In this document: piece by piece, positions 37,991-45,044 of the stretch
Layout: each line of letters starts with the position of its first letter
Position numbering within the stretch: position 1 is the stretch's first letter
Sequence record: NZ_CP110908.1
Strand: one strand, 5' to 3'
DNA from: a plasmid
Length of the DNA: 64,000 nt
Notes under the pieces: model-generated
The model's input: the letters and a program-made list of their open reading frames with translations, nothing else
What the model was told of the DNA's origin: nothing
Database searches by the model: none
Program-made: the position numbers and the translations under genes

Positions 37991-38413
37991 ATGTTACTTT
38001 TTGTCGCCCCCGAACAGGAGCCGGTGCAGTCCACTGCCCCGCTGTTCACCGAACGTTGCCCGGCGGGTTTTCCGTCGCCGGCCGCCGATTACACCGAAGA
38101 AGAGCTGGACCTGAACACTTACTGTATCCGGCGTCCGGCTGCAACGTTCTTCGTCAGGGCTATCGGGGATTCGATGCGGGATATGGGTCTGCATTCCGGC
38201 GATTTAATGGTGGTCGACAAAGCAGAGAAACCCATGCAGGGGGATATCGTTATCGCGGAAACAAACGGCGAATTCACGGTTAAACGCCTGCAGCTGAAGC
38301 CCCGCATTGCCCTGCTGCCGATGAACCCGGCCTACCCCACGCTCTATCCGGAAGAACTGCAGATTTTTGGGGTGGTGACGGCTTTTATACACAAAACCCG
38401 GAGCACAGACTGA
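37991..38413 (+). CDS. umuD: UmuD/MucA-like Pol V accessory subunit (S24 peptidase)
   Basis: ...[46 protein letters not shown]... LexA-like self-cleaving fold. Confidence 0.85.
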
Positions 38414-39687
38414 TGTTTGCGCTCGCGGACGTGAATTCGTTCTATGCCAGCTGCGAAAAGGTCTTTCGCCCTGATCTGCGGAATAAACCCGTTGTCGTTC
38501 TCTCAAATAATGATGGCTGCGTCATTGCGAGAAGCCCTGAAGCGAAGCGGCTGGGCATAAAAATGGGGGTACCGTGGTTTCAGCTGAAGTTGGTGAAATT
38601 TCCGGAGCCGGTCATCGCGTTCTCCAGTAATTACGCGTTGTATGCGAGTCTCAGCAACAGAGTGATGATCCATTTAGAGGAAATGGCGCCACGGGTGGAG
38701 CAGTATTCCATTGATGAGATGTTTCTGGACATTCGCGGCATAGACCGCTGCATTAATTTTGAGGACTTCGGCCGGCAGCTGCGTGAGCACGTCCGGAACG
38801 GAACCGGCCTGACTATCGGCGTGGGTATGGGGCCAACTAAAACGCTGGCGAAGTCAGCTCAATGGGCCTCCAAAGAATGGTCGCAGTTTGGTGGCGTTCT
38901 GGCGTTAACGCCGGGAAATCCCCGCCGCACGGAAAAACTGCTCTCACTGCAGCCGGTGGAGGAAATCTGGGGGGTTGGCCGGAGAATTTCGAAAAAGCTG
39001 AACACAATGGGAGTCACCACGGCACTGCAGCTGGCGCGCGCGAACCCTGTATTTATCAGGAAGAATTTCAGCGTTGTGCTGGAGAGAACCGTCCGGGAAC
39101 TCAACGGAGAAAGCTGTATTTCGCTGGAAGAAGCGCCTCCGCCGAAACAGCAGATTGTCTGCAGCCGATCCTTTGGGGAGCGTGTTACGACGTATGAAGC
39201 CATGCGCCAGGCAGTTTGTCAGTACGCTGAGCGTGCAGCTGAAAAGCTGCGCGGCGAGCGTCAGTTCTGCAGGCATATTGCCGTGTTTGTGAAAACATCG
39301 CCATTCGCCGTAAATGAGCCCTACTACGGTAATCTGGCCAGTGAAAAACTGCTCATCCCCACGCAGGATACACGGGACATCATTGCCGCTGCCGTCAGAG
39401 CTCTGGACAGGATCTGGGTGGATGGTCACCGTTACGCAAAGGCAGGCTGTATGCTGAACGATTTCATGCCAACTGGGGTATCGCAGCTGAATTTGTTTGA
39501 TGAAGTACAGCCGTGGGAACGGAGCGAGCAGTTGATGCAAGTTCTGGATAGTATTAACCATTCCGGTCTGGGGAAAGTGTGGTTTGCGGGACGGGGCATT
39601 GCTCCTGAGTGGCAAATGAAACGAGAAATGCTTTCCCCTGCGTACACAACGCGCTGGAATGATCTCCCGGTGGCAATGATAAGATGA
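38413..39687 (+). CDS. umuC: UmuC/MucB-like Y-family DNA polymerase V catalytic subunit
   Basis: [22 protein letters not shown]...[10 protein letters not shown]... Typical UmuC N-terminus. 424 aa. Confidence 0.9.
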
Positions 39688-39700
39688 TCTGCCACCGAAA

Positions 39701-39718
39701 GATTTCGCATGCGAAATC
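39701..39718. promoter_or_regulatory. 18-bp perfect palindrome GATTTCGCATGCGAAATC (copy 1)
   Basis: Seen directly in the sequence. Intergenic, between umuC and the RES gene. Confidence 0.8.
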
Positions 39719-39735
39719 TAGGTTGTATCAACCCG

Positions 39736-41118
39736 TCAGAAATCGTCATCTGAATAGCCAGATTTCGCATGCGAAATCTCTGCTTCAGCGGCAGACAAAC
39801 TTATCTCTTTATGGCCTACCGGGGTTACTAACGATGTATACTTAACGCCCCTGATTTCATGGATCTCAATACTGCCCAACTTCAGTTCAAGTACGTCTTG
39901 CTGAGGTTTGTTTCGGGAGAGAACGGTAAACTCTCGTCTGAAATCACGATTGGTCGTTGTCATCTGAGGGTCAAACTCAGCGTAGTCATCGTCTTCTCTA
40001 TACATTGAAACTTGCGCTTCCAGTCGTCTGAGTTTGGCGTTTTTAACTGCCGATGACTTATGAAACAAGATCACATTACACGCGTTTTCCTCCCCTTGGC
40101 CAGAAGGCATTTGAGCAGACGAAAACTTGATTCCATCCAGTGAATATTTGTCCGTGATAGACAGATAATCAGCAATAGCTTGCGTAAGCAGATAGTTCGA
40201 TTCAGCGAGCTCAGGCACAACCGGCATAACTAGTTTGCGTGATAGTGTTGCTATGAAACGGCTACGCTCATATCTGACCAGATATTCAGGATCAAAACGG
40301 CTTACACCGTTTACAGCCACTCTGCCGAGTACCGTCAAATCGAGGAGACGTACAGGACGCAGTACCCGAAATTCAGAAACTACTACGAAACTACCGACCG
40401 GAGGACGGACTTCCGAAACGGCATTAGTTTTGGATGTTGCTCCATAAAATACAGATATTCCTTTCGCGTTCATCCGACCATAAGGTGCTAAATCGGAAGG
40501 AGGGGGGCCAAGCCTTGATTCTGGCATGTGCAACGCAGACTTAATGTCATCCTCGGACTTAAAAATCCGTCCACGATAAAGAGGCGTATCTGGAGTGAAA
40601 TCGGTAAAGGCTGAAGGGTGATTATCAAAGAGATAACCGAACACTTCATCAAACGTTTCAAGGGCATCATGATTGAAAAAACGATTACTTTCACGAAGCT
40701 TCTTTTCCATTAAAGCCCATTTGTTGGAAAGCTTAGAAGAAATTGATATTGCTGAGATGAAGAGTGGATCTTCACCATATTTATGTTCTTCAGTTCCCCG
40801 TTCGAACCAGCAATCCAACAGTATTTTTGAAAGGTCTTTAATCACATCGATGTTGGATGAAACCTCTTGTTCAAGAATCTCGATAAGAGGAGAACCTTCC
40901 TGAACACCATACTCATGGTCTACTTCGCCAGGAGAATAATATTTTTCTATCAGCCAGTCAGTTTTATTTCCCAATGCATGCATAGACATGGTTCGGTCTT
41001 CATTACCACAGTAGTCGCATGGTCTGTAAGAATCCGGGTCATTAATGATCATGTGAAAGAGAACCGGGTCATTCTTCAAACAGTGACTGCAAACTCTCTT
41101 GTAATTCTCGTCAAGCAT
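39736..41118 (-). CDS. Large RES-domain protein (~460 aa) with an N-terminal Cys-rich (2x CxxC) domain
   Basis: Central ...LYRGRIF...YGRMNAKGISVFYGATSKTNAVSEVRP... matches the RES toxin-domain signature. N-terminal CSHC...CDYC zinc-ribbon-like. AGGAG RBS, ATG at 41118. Confidence 0.5.
   Translation of the reverse strand: MLDENYKRVCSHCLKNDPVLFHMIINDPDSYRPCDYCGNEDRTMSMHALGNKTDWLIEKYYSPGEVDHEYGVQEGSPLIEILEQEVSSNIDVIKDLSKILLDCWFERGTEEHKYGEDPLFISAISISSKLSNKWALMEKKLRESNRFFNHDALETFDEVFGYLFDNHPSAFTDFTPDTPLYRGRIFKSEDDIKSALHMPESRLGPPPSDLAPYGRMNAKGISVFYGATSKTNAVSEVRPPVGSFVVVSEFRVLRPVRLLDLTVLGRVAVNGVSRFDPEYLVRYERSRFIATLSRKLVMPVVPELAESNYLLTQAIADYLSITDKYSLDGIKFSSAQMPSGQGEENACNVILFHKSSAVKNAKLRRLEAQVSMYREDDDYAEFDPQMTTTNRDFRREFTVLSRNKPQQDVLELKLGSIEIHEIRGVKYTSLVTPVGHKEISLSAAEAEISHAKSGYSDDDF
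39761..39778. promoter_or_regulatory. 18-bp palindrome copy 2 (inside the 3' end of the RES-domain gene, encoding EISHAKS)
   Basis: Seen directly in the sequence. Confidence 0.8.
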
Positions 41119-41135
41119 CGTGATGCTCCTGTAAA

Positions 41136-41153
41136 AATTTCGCATGCGAAATC
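41136..41153. promoter_or_regulatory. Palindrome copy 3 (aATTTCGCATGCGAAATC) overlapping the promoter/RBS region of the RES gene
   Basis: Seen directly in the sequence, 18-35 bp upstream of the RES-gene ATG. Confidence 0.75.
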
Positions 41154-41160
41154 TCAATAT

Positions 41161-41484
41161 CTAATTTCGCCGATAGAGTTCTTTAACGCTTGCAGATAGC
41201 TGGTAGTGCTGTTTTGCCCACCGCCCGTAGTTATTAACGGACTCATACTGACGCTCGGCAGCACCATCACGGTAATACTGTATATGGATAATCCCATGTA
41301 GCTGCAGATAGCTGGCTACCGTTGTTACATTATTGCGAATGAAGCGCGTGTGGCTCTGGAACACATCAAGATCAACTCCGTCCTGTCCTTCATCAAGCGC
41401 ATCAAGAATAAAAGCGATTAATGCAGAAGCGATAGAACGTCTGCCAGAGCCTGCGATACAAGCATCAAGCTCTTGAAAGGTCAT
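41161..41484 (-). CDS. Hypothetical protein (107 aa), translationally coupled within the par operon
   Basis: ATGA overlap with the upstream ORF. Confidence 0.4.
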   Translation of the reverse strand: MTFQELDACIAGSGRRSIASALIAFILDALDEGQDGVDLDVFQSHTRFIRNNVTTVASYLQLHGIIHIQYYRDGAAERQYESVNNYGRWAKQHYQLSASVKELYRRN

Positions 41485-41921
41485 GTGGATTTCCTGTTGT
41501 AACGGTAGCTGGCATCCTCTTCAATTGCCGCCACGAACCATCCGGTAGCCGTTTGCCTGTCTATGCTATCAGGCAAGGAAGCGACTAACTGCTCAAGTGG
41601 AAGTGTACGATTAGCTCTGAATATCAGCGCCGACATACCACACCAGTCCTGGTTACTTTCTGGCTTCCAGCCGATGCTGAGCATCAATGTTAACGCTGTC
41701 TGAGCTGCCCACAACGGAGTTTCAGCCGGGTTAGAGGACCATGAAAGTAACGCCGCGCCGGGTACGGGCCTGCTTCTTGTAACATATCCCAGATTGATAG
41801 CCGCTTCTGTTAATGCGGCAGCTGCTTCGGATTGAGTTCCGGGATATCGAAGCGCCCAGAGGCGGACAATTTGGCCACGGAATGCCATGGCCATTTCGGT
41901 GAACGGGGTTGATTTCATCAC
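41481..41921 (-). CDS. Hypothetical protein (146 aa), translationally coupled to parB
   Basis: ATGA overlap with the parB stop. Confidence 0.4.
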   Translation of the reverse strand: MMKSTPFTEMAMAFRGQIVRLWALRYPGTQSEAAAALTEAAINLGYVTRSRPVPGAALLSWSSNPAETPLWAAQTALTLMLSIGWKPESNQDWCGMSALIFRANRTLPLEQLVASLPDSIDRQTATGWFVAAIEEDASYRYNRKST

Positions 41922-42949
41922 TGAGAGCGCATCCCTTTGACGCGTAGTTCAGAAGCCTCAACTGAAATCTCACCAATTTCCATTTTCACCCACACATACC
42001 CAGCTTTATCTGGCGCACGGTCAGTCATTATTACCCCTTGCTGACCGTCTATCTCGACAACAACCTGCCATGTTTTTACATCTGAATTACAGTCTAAAAG
42101 CTTGGTTGATTTTTTGTTCTGAGACTTAGATTTCGCATGCGAAATCTCACCTTTGCTTTTGTTCTTAACTGCATCAAGAACAGCTTTAACCTGCGAACGT
42201 GAAATACCAGACTCTCGCGCAGCTGCGACAAGCTTCTCGGCCTCTTCGGGAGACTTTTCATTTACCTGTATCAGTGTGTATGCCAGATCGACATCGGATG
42301 TGATTTTATCCCGGAGAAGGGCGGTAACATTTTCTGGTGCATCAATGAGACGAAGGTGTTTACTGACAAATGAGGTAGGCTTACCCATTGTTTTTGCGAT
42401 CTGCTCACCCGTCATATTGAACTCATGCTTGAGCTCATAGAACGATTTTGCAGTCGCTAATGGTTTCAAACCAGACTGCTGCAGATTTTCAATGAGCTGA
42501 CCGATGATGCGTTCTTTTCTTTCCCGTGGTGGTTTACCGACATAAATATCAATGTGGGTATCACCACGCTTGCGGGCAGTGCGAACACGCGTTTCGCCTA
42601 ACCATATCTGGTAGCCACGTCTGTCACGAGGATAACAACGAGGCGGGGTAAGCATCCCTATCGTTTCGAAGGTATCAGCCATACCATCGATAATATCTTC
42701 CTCGAAGTCTTCTTCAGGTCGCACTTGTTCTTCAGCATAAACCAGATTTATATCGACACGGATTATCTGTCCATCAGGTTCGATATCCGGTCGGGCAATA
42801 TCCGCCATAATCTGGTGCGCAGCTATATCATGGTTCTGCTCATCTGGTTGTTTATTTGCAATGACCTGTTCAATATCAGAAACAACAGATGCATTTTTTT
42901 TCATTTCCTGCTGCGCCTGGAGTCGTCTCATAAACGGTTTCTTGGCCAT
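41918..42949 (-). CDS. parB: ParB partition protein (ParB/Srx N-terminal domain, GxxRxxA box)
   Basis: ...YQIWLGETRVRTARKRG... ParB box II. HTH. 343 aa. Stop overlaps parA. Confidence 0.8.
   Translation of the reverse strand: MAKKPFMRRLQAQQEMKKNASVVSDIEQVIANKQPDEQNHDIAAHQIMADIARPDIEPDGQIIRVDINLVYAEEQVRPEEDFEEDIIDGMADTFETIGMLTPPRCYPRDRRGYQIWLGETRVRTARKRGDTHIDIYVGKPPRERKERIIGQLIENLQQSGLKPLATAKSFYELKHEFNMTGEQIAKTMGKPTSFVSKHLRLIDAPENVTALLRDKITSDVDLAYTLIQVNEKSPEEAEKLVAAARESGISRSQVKAVLDAVKNKSKGEISHAKSKSQNKKSTKLLDCNSDVKTWQVVVEIDGQQGVIMTDRAPDKAGYVWVKMEIGEISVEASELRVKGMRSQ
42129..42146. promoter_or_regulatory. Palindrome copy 4 (inside the parB 3' coding region, encoding EISHAKS)
   Basis: Seen directly in the sequence. 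Confidence 0.8.
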
Positions 42950-43815
42950 TACTTACCTCCTGCGAGCAGAATAATTTTCTTAGTAAGTTCTTTATACTGA
43001 ATTGCAGGAAGACATTTGGGGTCATATTCATCAAATGAGAGACCAAGTTCGATCGCTTCCTTTGCAGCAGCAGGTACAAATGATATATAGGCGAGAATGT
43101 ATTCTTCAGAGTAGCCTTTTCCCTGAAGGATCTCGATGAGGAGATTCAGGTTCAGTGTATCAATAGGCCCCAGATATCCTTCTTTAAGTGGCTTTTTATA
43201 ATTTTTGACCTGCGTCTGCGTCACATAAGTCCCCATGAACTGCAGCGAAGGATTGTAGTTCCGCTTAATTTTCTGCATATAAGTAAGCTGTTTACCAACT
43301 GCATTACGGGCCTGCTTCTCCAGCAGGGTAGGGATCAGAAGGTAATCAGCTGACATATGCGCTGCGATCATGACATTTGAATAAGATGGCGCTGAATCAG
43401 CAATAATAAAATCAAACTGTTTCTTCAGTTCTTCAATACGGTCCCTGAAGTCGAACATGCAGTCGCTGTTTCGGTAGTTAATTTCATTAAGTTCACTGGT
43501 AGCACCGATAAAAAAGCGCCCGCCAGGAAGCTCAATCGGTCGAATCTCTGTTTCAGAAAAGAAAAGCTGATATGTATTCGCTTCACCGGGTGTAAAACTG
43601 TTACTTAAAGGTTCGCGTTCTATCTCATAAGGTAAGCCGTCAGGGAATGCCCTCTCCGTCAGACCAGTTGTCCAGTCCATATCAATTTCAAGCACACGGA
43701 AACCAGCTTCACGAAGGTCATGTGCGATTTCACTGGATGACTGCGATTTAACGATTCCGCCCTTCTGACTACATACAACGATCAGTTTTCCGATAGGTCC
43801 AATTTTCAGTGTCAT
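42949..43815 (-). CDS. parA: ParA partition ATPase (deviant Walker A KGGxxKS, no N-terminal HTH)
   Basis: MTLKIGPIGKLIVVCSQKGGIVKSQSS... AAGGA RBS before the ATG at 43815. Confidence 0.8.
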   Translation of the reverse strand: MTLKIGPIGKLIVVCSQKGGIVKSQSSSEIAHDLREAGFRVLEIDMDWTTGLTERAFPDGLPYEIEREPLSNSFTPGEANTYQLFFSETEIRPIELPGGRFFIGATSELNEINYRNSDCMFDFRDRIEELKKQFDFIIADSAPSYSNVMIAAHMSADYLLIPTLLEKQARNAVGKQLTYMQKIKRNYNPSLQFMGTYVTQTQVKNYKKPLKEGYLGPIDTLNLNLLIEILQGKGYSEEYILAYISFVPAAAKEAIELGLSFDEYDPKCLPAIQYKELTKKIILLAGGK

Positions 43816-43829
43816 GTAACAATCCTTAA

Positions 43830-43847
43830 GATTTCGCATGCGAAATG
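43830..43847. promoter_or_regulatory. Palindrome copy 5 (GATTTCGCATGCGAAATg) overlapping the parA RBS-proximal region
   Basis: Seen directly in the sequence. Confidence 0.75.
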
Positions 43848-44047
43848 TTTGAGAAGGGGCGGCACGGCTTGAAAGAGTATTTCAATAATGAAATGAATTC
43901 ATTGCGGGATTTCATACACACTCCTGTGAGTCAGGCGTTTCGCCAGGTGCAGAAGCAGCTATCTGCCACTGCGTTTGTTGTCGCGCTTTCATGACAACAC
44001 AAACAGTATACAGAGAAAATATAAGATATCAATAATGATACGCAATA

Positions 44048-44065
44048 GATTTCGCATGCGAAATC
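44048..44065. promoter_or_regulatory. Palindrome copy 6, about 230 bp upstream of parA
   Basis: Seen directly in the sequence. Confidence 0.8.
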
Positions 44066-44221
44066 ACATTTTATGTCCGTTAGTAAAAGCCGAACCAGCG
44101 GCTTTTTTACGTCACTGGTTTAATACCCTCGCCATCTGGACACTCCGATAATTCTGTCCAGTTCTGCTGGCAGCGCAGGATCTGGCCTGATAGTCTTGGG
44201 TAATAACTACAGGAGGTAGAG

Positions 44222-44440
44222 ATGACATTTTTCCTTATTATTGCGTTTGCTCTGATAGTCGTCGGTAGGCTTCTGCTGCGAAAGAGCCTAAATAAACTCC
44301 ACAATGAGTATTACCGCCGCGCTGACGAGCGGGGATGCGCGGAACGTTATGAATCGTTCGTTCGCCTTTACAATTCCAGAGATCCCCGCATTTTAGAAAT
44401 TGCTTATCTGGAAGCCATTTCCTGCACTAAGGCCGCTTGA
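44222..44440 (+). CDS. Small membrane protein (72 aa)
   Basis: Hydrophobic N-terminus. Followed by a hairpin plus T-run terminator. Confidence 0.35.
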   Translation: MTFFLIIAFALIVVGRLLLRKSLNKLHNEYYRRADERGCAERYESFVRLYNSRDPRILEIAYLEAISCTKAA

Positions 44441-44450
44441 GCGGCCTTTT
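44420..44450 (+). terminator. Rho-independent terminator (ggccgcttgagcggcc + TTTTTTAT)
   Basis: GC stem followed by a T tract. Confidence 0.5.
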
Positions 44451-44515
44451 TTATATCCCTCGTTTAATTCTCCGCTCGGTTAGACATTCAGGTATTTCTG
44501 TCCACGTCAGTTAGC

Positions 44516-44914
44516 TCAGGTCCATAACGAAAGAATCCAGCCAGCTATCACATCGTTTGAAATTGATGCGAAAACTCCACACGCGCCTCCAAGCCACCAT
44601 TTATGCTTTCCCACAAAACGCTTTAGCTTTTCCCCTCTGGTAAGTGATGCCTCATGCAATTCGATAAGCGTTATCCATTCCTGTATCTTCTGTTTATAAT
44701 AATTCCAGCTATTCTTATCTACCTGTTCCTGAGATAGCGGTTTTATTCTTCTGGAGATCCAGCCGCAGAATTCGGGAGGCATAATTTCCGATAACTCTTT
44801 TACACCAAAATCAAACCGGTGCTGGTTAAGAAGAGATATAATTTCTCTCTGTTCAGCGGTGTTAAGCCCAGCGCGGTCGCGGACTTCAATTAGTTGGTCC
44901 AGTGTCATAAGCAA
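44516..44914 (-). CDS. Hypothetical protein (~130 aa) with C-terminal TM segment
   Basis: ORF. AT-richer than the flanking sequence. Confidence 0.35.
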   Translation of the reverse strand: MLMTLDQLIEVRDRAGLNTAEQREIISLLNQHRFDFGVKELSEIMPPEFCGWISRRIKPLSQEQVDKNSWNYYKQKIQEWITLIELHEASLTRGEKLKRFVGKHKWWLGGACGVFASISNDVIAGWILSLWT

Positions 44915-45044
44915 GCCCTCTTATGGTTGAAGACCCCTATTTTATCACCTCCGGAACATGGCCGTAGAAGTCGCCCTGTTATGTCCATTTATAATAAATT
45001 TGCGTTCGCCTGGACGTTCAGTTGTTTCAGTTCACTTACTTACC

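Follow-up and report, generated by a model that had tools for sequence, protein, structure and literature searches.

A recurrent palindrome around the parA-parB genes of an enterobacterial plasmid as a putative site of a KorB-like ParB protein, and its apparent imprint on the coding sequences that carry it

Introduction

The present study concerns a palindromic sequence, GATTTCGCATGCGAAATC, that recurs around the partition genes parA and parB in a 64,000-nucleotide stretch of plasmid DNA (sequence record NZ_CP110908.1; the whole stretch is called the window below), and that is translated into the same heptapeptide, EISHAKS, in the ParB protein and in an unrelated RES-domain protein. With a probability of roughly 80%, the palindrome represents the cognate site at which the adjacent KorB-like ParB binds, and acts as a parS centromere, as a KorB-type operator or as both; this reading draws on sequence comparison and on analogy with described systems. 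Moreover, comparison of homologous genes supported the view that the peptide is a by-product of selection on the DNA.

The OB operator of plasmid RK2 is the 13-bp sequence TTTAGCSGCTAAA, and Lin and Grossman reportedly described in 1998 a parS site of B. subtilis that lies inside spo0J. In Acinetobacter, pdif modules consist of a cargo gene, often for a toxin or resistance, that is bounded by short symmetric sites and is present, absent or exchanged between plasmids. KorB of RK2 acts as a CTP-dependent clamp and can slide as far as 1.5 kb away from OB, and its operators lie in promoter-proximal and distal positions (PMC11790492). In plasmid RA3, the genes are arranged as korA-incC-korB-orf11-parS, and KorB binds parS as well as operators (PMC7414963). 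A survey of repABC replicons recorded sites at the 5' end of repB and proposed positive selection of parS within coding sequences (PMC9040568), and Borrelia ParZ binds inside the gene that encodes it (10.1101/2022.07.05.498848). A paper on the translocation of ParA and ParB1 of pED208 contained no site information. Intragenic centromere and operator sites are already documented, and KorB-type systems with a dual function in partition and repression are well studied. What the present locus adds is a putative site definition and architecture for a clinically widespread module, a codon-level demonstration, from compared genes, of a peptide island that appears to be imposed by the site with a frame preference across unrelated genes, and a site-bounded slot for a RES cargo gene.

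Compared with RK2 (IncP-1; KorB, IncC and KorA; 12 OB operators), the locus likewise has a ParA partner and a ParB with a KorB helix-turn-helix (HTH) domain and a predicted C-terminal barrel, and it carries multiple short perfect palindromes with TTT...AAA arms at promoters and at promoter-distal places; by analogy, a dual role in partition and repression would be expected here. The two systems differ in the site itself, which is the even 14-bp sequence TTTCGCATGCGAAA here and the 13-bp OB sequence in RK2, and in its distribution, which is confined to the par neighbourhood here and plasmid-wide in RK2. Furthermore, no KorA-family match was found among the neighbouring open reading frames (ORFs) with Pfam and NCBIfam, and orf107, which encodes a predicted winged-helix protein, is the only candidate partner. 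On account of its different operator and of the missing KorA, the module stands outside the strict RK2 KorB-OB-KorA system. The likeness to RA3 (IncU) lies in the order of ParA, a KorB-like ParB, small accessory gene(s) and a centromere-like site directly after the last gene, whereas two accessory genes (orf146 and orf107) are present here, a possible upstream ORF (uORF) is found instead of an upstream korA, and an additional site lies inside parB. As with the intragenic parS sites of B. subtilis spo0J, repABC and Borrelia ParZ, the site (here putative) of a centromere-binding protein lies within its own or neighbouring genes. In contrast to those cases, the protein consequence is directly readable as an invariant peptide island in a hypervariable linker, and the same peptide recurs in unrelated proteins with one reading frame strongly preferred. 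The pdif modules provide an analogy only, in that a cargo gene is bounded by short symmetric site copies; the sites here are unlike Xer sites and co-evolve with ParB, and no evidence of site-specific recombination was found.

Results

The window contained six copies of the palindrome, two of them with 1 mismatch, and all were clustered inside positions 39701-44065 (4.4 kb):

Site A, 44048..44065, unstranded: palindrome in the parA promoter region, ending 15 nt upstream of the predicted -35 element; position kept across relatives.
Site B, 43830..43847, unstranded: palindrome with 1 mismatch at an outer base, 15 nt upstream of the parA ATG; same position in nearly all relatives.
Site C, 42129..42146, unstranded: palindrome within parB, translated as (E)ISHAKS (residues 268-274) at the start of the linker.
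Site D, 41136..41153, unstranded: palindrome with 1 mismatch at the end of the conserved four-gene module, separated by 8 nt from the preceding orf107 stop and by 18 nt from the following RES ATG.
Site E, 39761..39778, unstranded: palindrome within the 3' end of the RES gene, translated as EISHAKS (residues 447-453).
Site F, 39701..39718, unstranded: palindrome 60 bp from site E, flanked by the RES stop (39736) and the stop of the convergent umuC (39687).

The exact 14-mer TTTCGCATGCGAAA was common to all six sites, and most of them extended to the 20-bp palindrome AGATTTCGCATGCGAAATCT, which is the full form here. From shuffled sequences, 0.08 copies of the 18-mer would be expected at 3 or fewer mismatches, and none of 100 shuffles reached six. 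No further copy was found in the 64-kb window even at 2 mismatches, and the complete sister plasmid pEh23_3 (47.8 kb) had the same six copies and no others; a plasmid-wide KorB-like regulon was rejected for the present plasmid on these grounds. The initial annotation had reported the exact 18-mer at sites C and E and its translation into EISHAKS, and both statements were confirmed, the RES protein ending, by translation of the minus strand, in ...SAAEAEISHAKSGYSDDDF and ParB containing ...KNKSKGEISHAKSKSQNKK...; these two sites proved to be only two of the six copies. The placement of the peptide near a C-terminus holds for the RES protein of 460 residues and fails for the ParB of 343 residues, in which it lies 69 residues from the end.

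The loci of relatives were taken from PLSDB, from a further set with a single genome for each species, and from one metagenomic contig, and their ParB homologues were 42-100% identical. The exact 14-mer core was present in every fetched locus of useful length that had a KorB-like ParB homologue, with 1 (short Yersinia contigs) to 11 copies per locus, mostly 4-9, where chance would give about 6e-5 per 17 kb by our own arithmetic. This co-inheritance with the ParB family extended over Citrobacter, Klebsiella, Kluyvera, Mixta, Providencia, Morganella, Moellerella, Pantoea, Erwinia, Yersinia, Serratia and the metagenomic contig. Variation of the palindrome among relatives was restricted to the outermost bases, as in the form GTTTCGCATGCGAAAC of the Serratia clade and of one further locus, L028. 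Four placements were conserved: about 210 bp upstream of parA, ending 15 nt before a conserved TTGATA-16/17-TATAcT/TATAAT promoter; about 15 nt ahead of the parA start; within the parB linker, where the DNA of site C was retained in parB genes to a protein identity as low as about 42%; and 1-10 nt past the stop of the orf107 homologue, regardless of the next gene. From this association and from family analogy, we infer that the palindrome is a ParB-type site. In the Moellerella and Morganella relatives, sites also lay ahead of several other operons. A literature search with the 14-mer found no paper carrying the sequence.

The peptide xSHAKx occurred in about 75 of the 120 best ParB homologues (38-97% identity), twice in some, within an otherwise hypervariable linker in which the flanking residues were unrelated between lineages. 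In the 18 loci with SHAK in ParB (20 occurrences), the codons were always xTT TCG CAT GCG AAA, and every SHAK in ParB coincided with the palindrome. As a codon control, 18 distinct parB genes with pairwise identities of 44-99.7% were compared at 95 invariant-residue columns with degenerate codons. These columns had a mean of 2.97 codons; a single codon was used at 6 of the 95, and four of these six were the consecutive S, H, A and K. The ParB linkers of Serratia and Yersinia are long, rich in P, T and Q and devoid of the peptide, and the same palindrome lies in their loci outside parB. Similarly, RES homologues (about 30-34% identity) had unrelated C-termini without the peptide. The earlier proposal that a DNA-level constraint has been accommodated in coding sequence was largely supported by the codon invariance, by the co-occurrence of SHAK and palindrome, and by the absence of the peptide from site-less clades and RES homologues. 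The comparison of homologues, which had been suggested as its test, revealed no peptide without the palindrome, and on sequence grounds the peptide is dispensable and neither a family motif nor a conserved functional one. The shared frame of the two sites has a chance probability of 1/3 alone, and the case rests on the comparative data and not on that coincidence.

The palindrome is stop-free in all frames, with the readings (I)SHAK(S), FRMR(N) and (D)FACE(I). About eight coding contexts of the palindrome were counted:

parB linker: ISHAK frame.
RES tail: ISHAK frame.
Pantoea parB, second linker copy 20 residues downstream: ISHAK frame.
N-terminal disordered region of ParB in another clade: PVSHAKL.
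C-terminal extension of orf107 homologues: ...SSDIISHAK*.
UmuC loop, L028 5545-5558: VSHAKP in place of LTPGNP of the window UmuC.
orf164 (the orf146 homologue), L028 2838-2851: FRMRK in place of FRANR, the sole use of another frame.
Candidate 29-codon leader ORF: ends in NISHAKS*.

Seven of the eight contexts were in the ISHAK frame (binomial P about 0.003, provided that the contexts are independent). This frame is preferred likely because its polar, flexible peptide is tolerated by loops and disordered segments. An insertion of the peptide, as the initial annotation worded it, is not necessarily implied, for substitution of existing residues gave rise to the site in UmuC and orf164 of one relative; in orf164, the pre-existing sequence was already near FRMRK. 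Some of the intragenic placements given by the heuristic ORF caller were spurious, arising from short antisense ORFs or from longest-ORF starts that extended over sites B and D, and these were left uncounted.

Sequence searches placed the 343-aa protein in the ParB/KorB family, in the KorB-like branch of the ParB CTPase family. In Pfam, it matched KorB (PF08535, residues 178-262) with 62.4 bits (cut-off 22.3) and also HTH_ParB and ParB_N; it reached 75.9 bits for TIGR00180 (cut-off 58.45) and 25.5 for PF02195, marginally under the cut-off of 26.3. In the PDB, the sequence matched Spo0J, ParB and Noc structures best and KorB as well, to which the similarity was no more than about 30%. The sequence has the arginine patch (GxxRxxA) and the ENLQR-type box of the ParB/Spo0J CTPase family, and GETRVR (G118, T120, R121 and R123) and IENLQQ (E154 and N155) were invariant in 22 ParB homologues. 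An AlphaFold2 model run on a 22-sequence alignment predicted a confident DNA-binding domain ending in a helix at 251-266, a coil at residues 268-291 with a predicted local distance difference test score (pLDDT) below 50, and an all-beta C-terminal domain at 294-342 with pLDDT 80-90. By these domain limits, EISHAKS is the first stretch of a predicted disordered inter-domain linker and not of a C-terminal tail, so that of the disordered C-terminal tails proposed earlier the disorder is retained for the ParB copy and the tail is not.

The genes and further predicted features of the locus are as follows:

parA, 42949..43815, minus strand: 288 aa, Walker-type ParA/MinD-like ATPase (Pfam AAA_31, CbiA and MipZ); start as in PGAP.
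parB, 41918..42949, minus strand: 343 aa, KorB-like ParB with N-terminal ParB domain, KorB HTH domain, predicted disordered linker (268-291) and putative C-terminal beta barrel.
orf146 (orf145/146), 41481..41918/21, minus strand: third gene of the module, conserved and syntenic in relatives.
orf107, 41161..41484, minus strand: fourth module gene, conserved; predicted winged-helix protein.
RES-domain gene, 39736..41118, minus strand: 460 aa, N-terminal CxxC...CxxC region and RES domain (Pfam RES).
umuDC, 37991-39687, plus strand: convergent with the parA-parB-orf146-orf107-RES row.
Predicted sigma-70 par promoter, 44005..44032, minus strand: TTGATA, 16 nt, TATACT; 10/12 consensus matches, assigned by consensus match only.
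Candidate leader uORF, 43826..43915, minus strand: 29 codons, MKSRNEFISLLKYSFKPCRPFSNISHAKS*, with the Shine-Dalgarno (SD) sequence AGGAG at 43921-43925; tentative.

The five minus-strand genes form one row, and the host replicon is an IncF plasmid with antirestriction, DUF1380 and methylase genes as neighbours. Many plasmids of Citrobacter and Enterobacter carry the locus unchanged, and several hundred from Klebsiella carry it with about 95% identity; its matches in PLSDB comprised 677 records, mostly Klebsiella, with IncFIB/IncHI1B plasmids among them. The KorB-like module is very common in clinical Enterobacterales plasmids. For orf146, no family match above threshold was obtained with Pfam, NCBIfam or PADLOC. 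PADLOC also gave no match for RES, orf107 or ParB, and NCBIfam none for RES or orf107. The AlphaFold2 model of orf107 had a pLDDT of 93, and its best Foldseek matches were all winged helices (MarR, ArsR/HlyU and TFE-alpha) with weak E values of about 0.04; from this model, the last gene of the par module is a candidate second DNA-binding regulator. The RES domain (PF08808) was matched with 44.5 bits, and the 460-aa RES protein is annotated in pEh23_3. An identical RES gene is annotated inconsistently elsewhere, with 417 aa from an internal ATG in NZ_OW849083.1 (the version compared as locus L001, 8137-9390) and with 460 aa in NZ_CP126770.1; the 460-aa form has an AGGAG SD 7 nt upstream and takes in the CxxC...CxxC region.

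In the par leader, the -35 and -10 elements of the predicted promoter were conserved in homologous leaders. The candidate uORF continues across site B, in the ISHAK frame, to a stop that overlaps the SD of parA (TAAGGA). Its SD, ATG and open frame were kept in the enterobacterial, Mixta and Providencia relatives with a variable peptide and length (24-31 codons), and it was absent from the Pantoea/Erwinia clade; this arrangement suggests a possible translational coupling to parA. A second, clade-specific palindrome was observed over the promoter -35 (window about 44021-44046), reading ATTGCATATCAATATTGATATGCAAT in Providencia (L015/L016) and CAGATAGAGAATCAnnATTGATTCTCTATCTG in Erwinia and Pantoea (L017/L021) at the corresponding position, and imperfect in the window. 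By analogy with KorA beside KorB in RK2, it suggests a second repressor acting beside site A. In addition, the leader at 43934-43997 (minus strand) contains small hairpins, GCAGATAGCTGC at 43955-43966 and GGCGAAACGCC at 43934-43944, and compensatory changes in relatives (CCGGAGAGCCGG in L017) hint at a structured par 5' untranslated region, for which Rfam gave no match. A preprint on RNA structure at the 5' end of parB in Caulobacter was found to be unrelated.

Judging from the compared plasmids, RES is a present-or-absent, allele-variable cargo in a palindrome-bounded slot between the par module and umuC. In comparison with C. freundii p2075-2, identity was about 97% over the par module, about 60% over the body of RES, and 92-100% over the final 25 nt of RES, site F and the umuC end. 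The switch between RES alleles, from about 60% to more than 95% DNA identity, fell exactly at the left edge of site E, which assigns the RES tail SGYSDD(D/E)F to the conserved flank and not to the allele. In four relatives (L008-L011), RES was absent, and orf107 and the umuC end were connected by a single palindrome at the D/F position. A distant relative (ParB P0111, 43% identity) had another RES allele between a D-type and an F-type site, with no tail site; Klebsiella plasmids carried a third allele (46%) disrupted by insertion sequences; and in Serratia an unrelated gene occupied the slot. The homology with several plasmids stopped 7-8 bp beyond site A, and several of these comparisons may reflect one event. 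The left boundary of the RES allele, in comparison with the Klebsiella and L002 lineages, lay about 70-80 nt inside the 3' end of orf107 and not at site D. The idea that all mosaic breakpoints coincide exactly with palindromes was only partly true, since the boundary is exact at site E and displaced at sites A and D. No Xre-type antitoxin neighbour of RES was recognisable at the locus, and orf146 and orf107 are not dedicated antitoxins, because both are also present in RES-less loci.

Discussion

By analogy with KorB and ParB, the following mechanism is proposed. ParB dimers would be loaded at the six sites and, as clamps, would spread or slide across the 4.4-kb parA-parB-orf146-orf107-RES unit, and the loaded ParB would build the partition complex for ParA. 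Moreover, ParB at site A, beside the -35, and at site B, in the leader, would repress the operon's own promoter. Sites D, E and F, which bracket the RES cargo gene, would probably keep RES under ParB control. The intragenic copies may represent extra sites that were fixed where the proteins tolerate them, and they would have been fixed inside coding DNA because the unit is compact. Autoregulation and roadblocking by ParB, which the initial annotation had already put forward, are at present a conjecture.

Several observations weigh against a ParB site of this kind. A rule of regular spacing, with a site every 1.5 kb or less, was rejected, since sites B and D of Serratia loci are about 2.8-2.9 kb apart, and the ParB clades without a parB-internal site show that this site is not essential. 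The count of eight coding contexts is our own, and some of them may share ancestry. The C-terminal match of ParB to PF06613 (KorB_C, the SH3-like beta-barrel dimerisation domain), a family recorded for many ParB homologues, was weak (19.5 bits, under the cut-off of 25). The palindrome is also different from the canonical chromosomal parS (TGTTNCACGTGAAACA, 16-bp consensus); the GTTTCGCATGCGAAAC variants of Serratia and L028 have parS-like outer GTTTC/GAAAC arms and differ from parS in the centre (GCATGC) and in the spacing. Furthermore, an OB-type operator and, among the neighbouring ORFs, a KorA-family match are both missing, which places the module apart from RK2 and leaves the reading that it works like KorB unaffected. 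Finally, the position of sites B and D exactly between cistrons on the transcribed strand makes a role at the RNA level possible.

Such a role would make the palindrome mainly an RNA hairpin between cistrons, acting in mRNA processing, stability or translational coupling, and not a protein-binding DNA site. Sites B and D lie in many loci 1-10 nt past the upstream stop and 15-35 nt ahead of the next start, as this explanation would have it, and all six window sites are transcribable with the operon given read-through. However, the stem is weak (about -5 to -8 kcal/mol), several z-scores were unremarkable, and no Rfam match was obtained (E up to 1 in 39000-45000). The palindrome sequence is invariant and does not covary, whereas the small leader hairpins nearby do, site A lies upstream of the predicted promoter, and sites in Moellerella and Morganella lie in divergent promoter regions. 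We regard an RNA hairpin as improbable on this balance. A functional protein motif, such as a Lys-containing linker element contacting DNA or ParA, would instead make the palindrome a consequence of conserved codons, and ISHAKS is indeed conserved in ParB linkers over a wide identity range and always at the linker start. Against this stand the lack of synonymous variation, compared with about three codons at other invariant residues, the identical DNA at non-coding positions, the restriction of the peptide in unrelated proteins to places where the palindrome lies, and its absence from whole ParB clades and from RES homologues; by the codon data in particular, a motif at the protein level is essentially excluded.

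The mosaic structure of the locus raises the further question of whether the palindromes are primarily recombination sites bounding exchangeable cassettes, in the manner of the Acinetobacter pdif modules, with a secondary association with ParB. The RES gene between palindromes is variably present, absent or of a different allele, plasmids that lack it keep one palindrome at the junction, the allele switch falls exactly at site E, and the homology with several plasmids ends just past site A. On the other hand, the parB-internal and promoter sites are positionally conserved without rearrangement, no dedicated recombinase travels with the sites, one breakpoint lies inside orf107 at a distance from site D, and the site is unlike Xer or dif sites as generally known. 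In addition, ordinary homologous recombination is expected to leave boundaries at strongly conserved islands. It is very doubtful that recombination is the primary function of the palindromes. A binding site of the KorB-like ParB remains the preferred reading, and it can be extended to the cargo. ParB at site D and at sites E/F may silence RES, a potentially toxic NAD+ phosphorylase, in established plasmids and permit a burst of it on host entry before ParB accumulates (zygotic induction, in a plasmid leading-region neighbourhood), and/or the same 20-bp sites may serve as crossover points for the exchange or deletion of cargo alleles between plasmids with nothing in common but the ParB system. 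Both ideas together are tentative and rather unlikely to hold; the second, if true, would describe a ParB-site-bounded cassette system, of which the repeated placing of the site in coding DNA, in a single tolerated frame, would be the evolutionary signature.

The locus provides an unusually clean natural case in which a putative DNA-binding site dictates protein sequence, with an invariant peptide island inside a hypervariable linker that recurs in unrelated proteins, and it is a caution against reading short conserved peptides as protein motifs. The site-bounded RES cassette also suggests how cargo under putative ParB control is exchanged.

Three minor observations concern the sites of the window and its relatives. 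In L028, nine sites lie within 8.5 kb and reach past umuDC to a gene with a SRAP domain. Site pairs exactly 60 bp apart from centre to centre were seen twice independently, at 39701/39761 in the window and in the two parB linker copies of a Pantoea locus (L018, 8821 and 8881), which may be due to chance or to a preferred distance. A palindrome of related but distinct sequence, TTGCGCATGCGCAA, occurred three times (3690, 7386 and 11178) in C. freundii pSTW0522-19-2 (L026), near a distant RES homologue and a small gene annotated as ParB, and may be the site of another ParB-like regulator.

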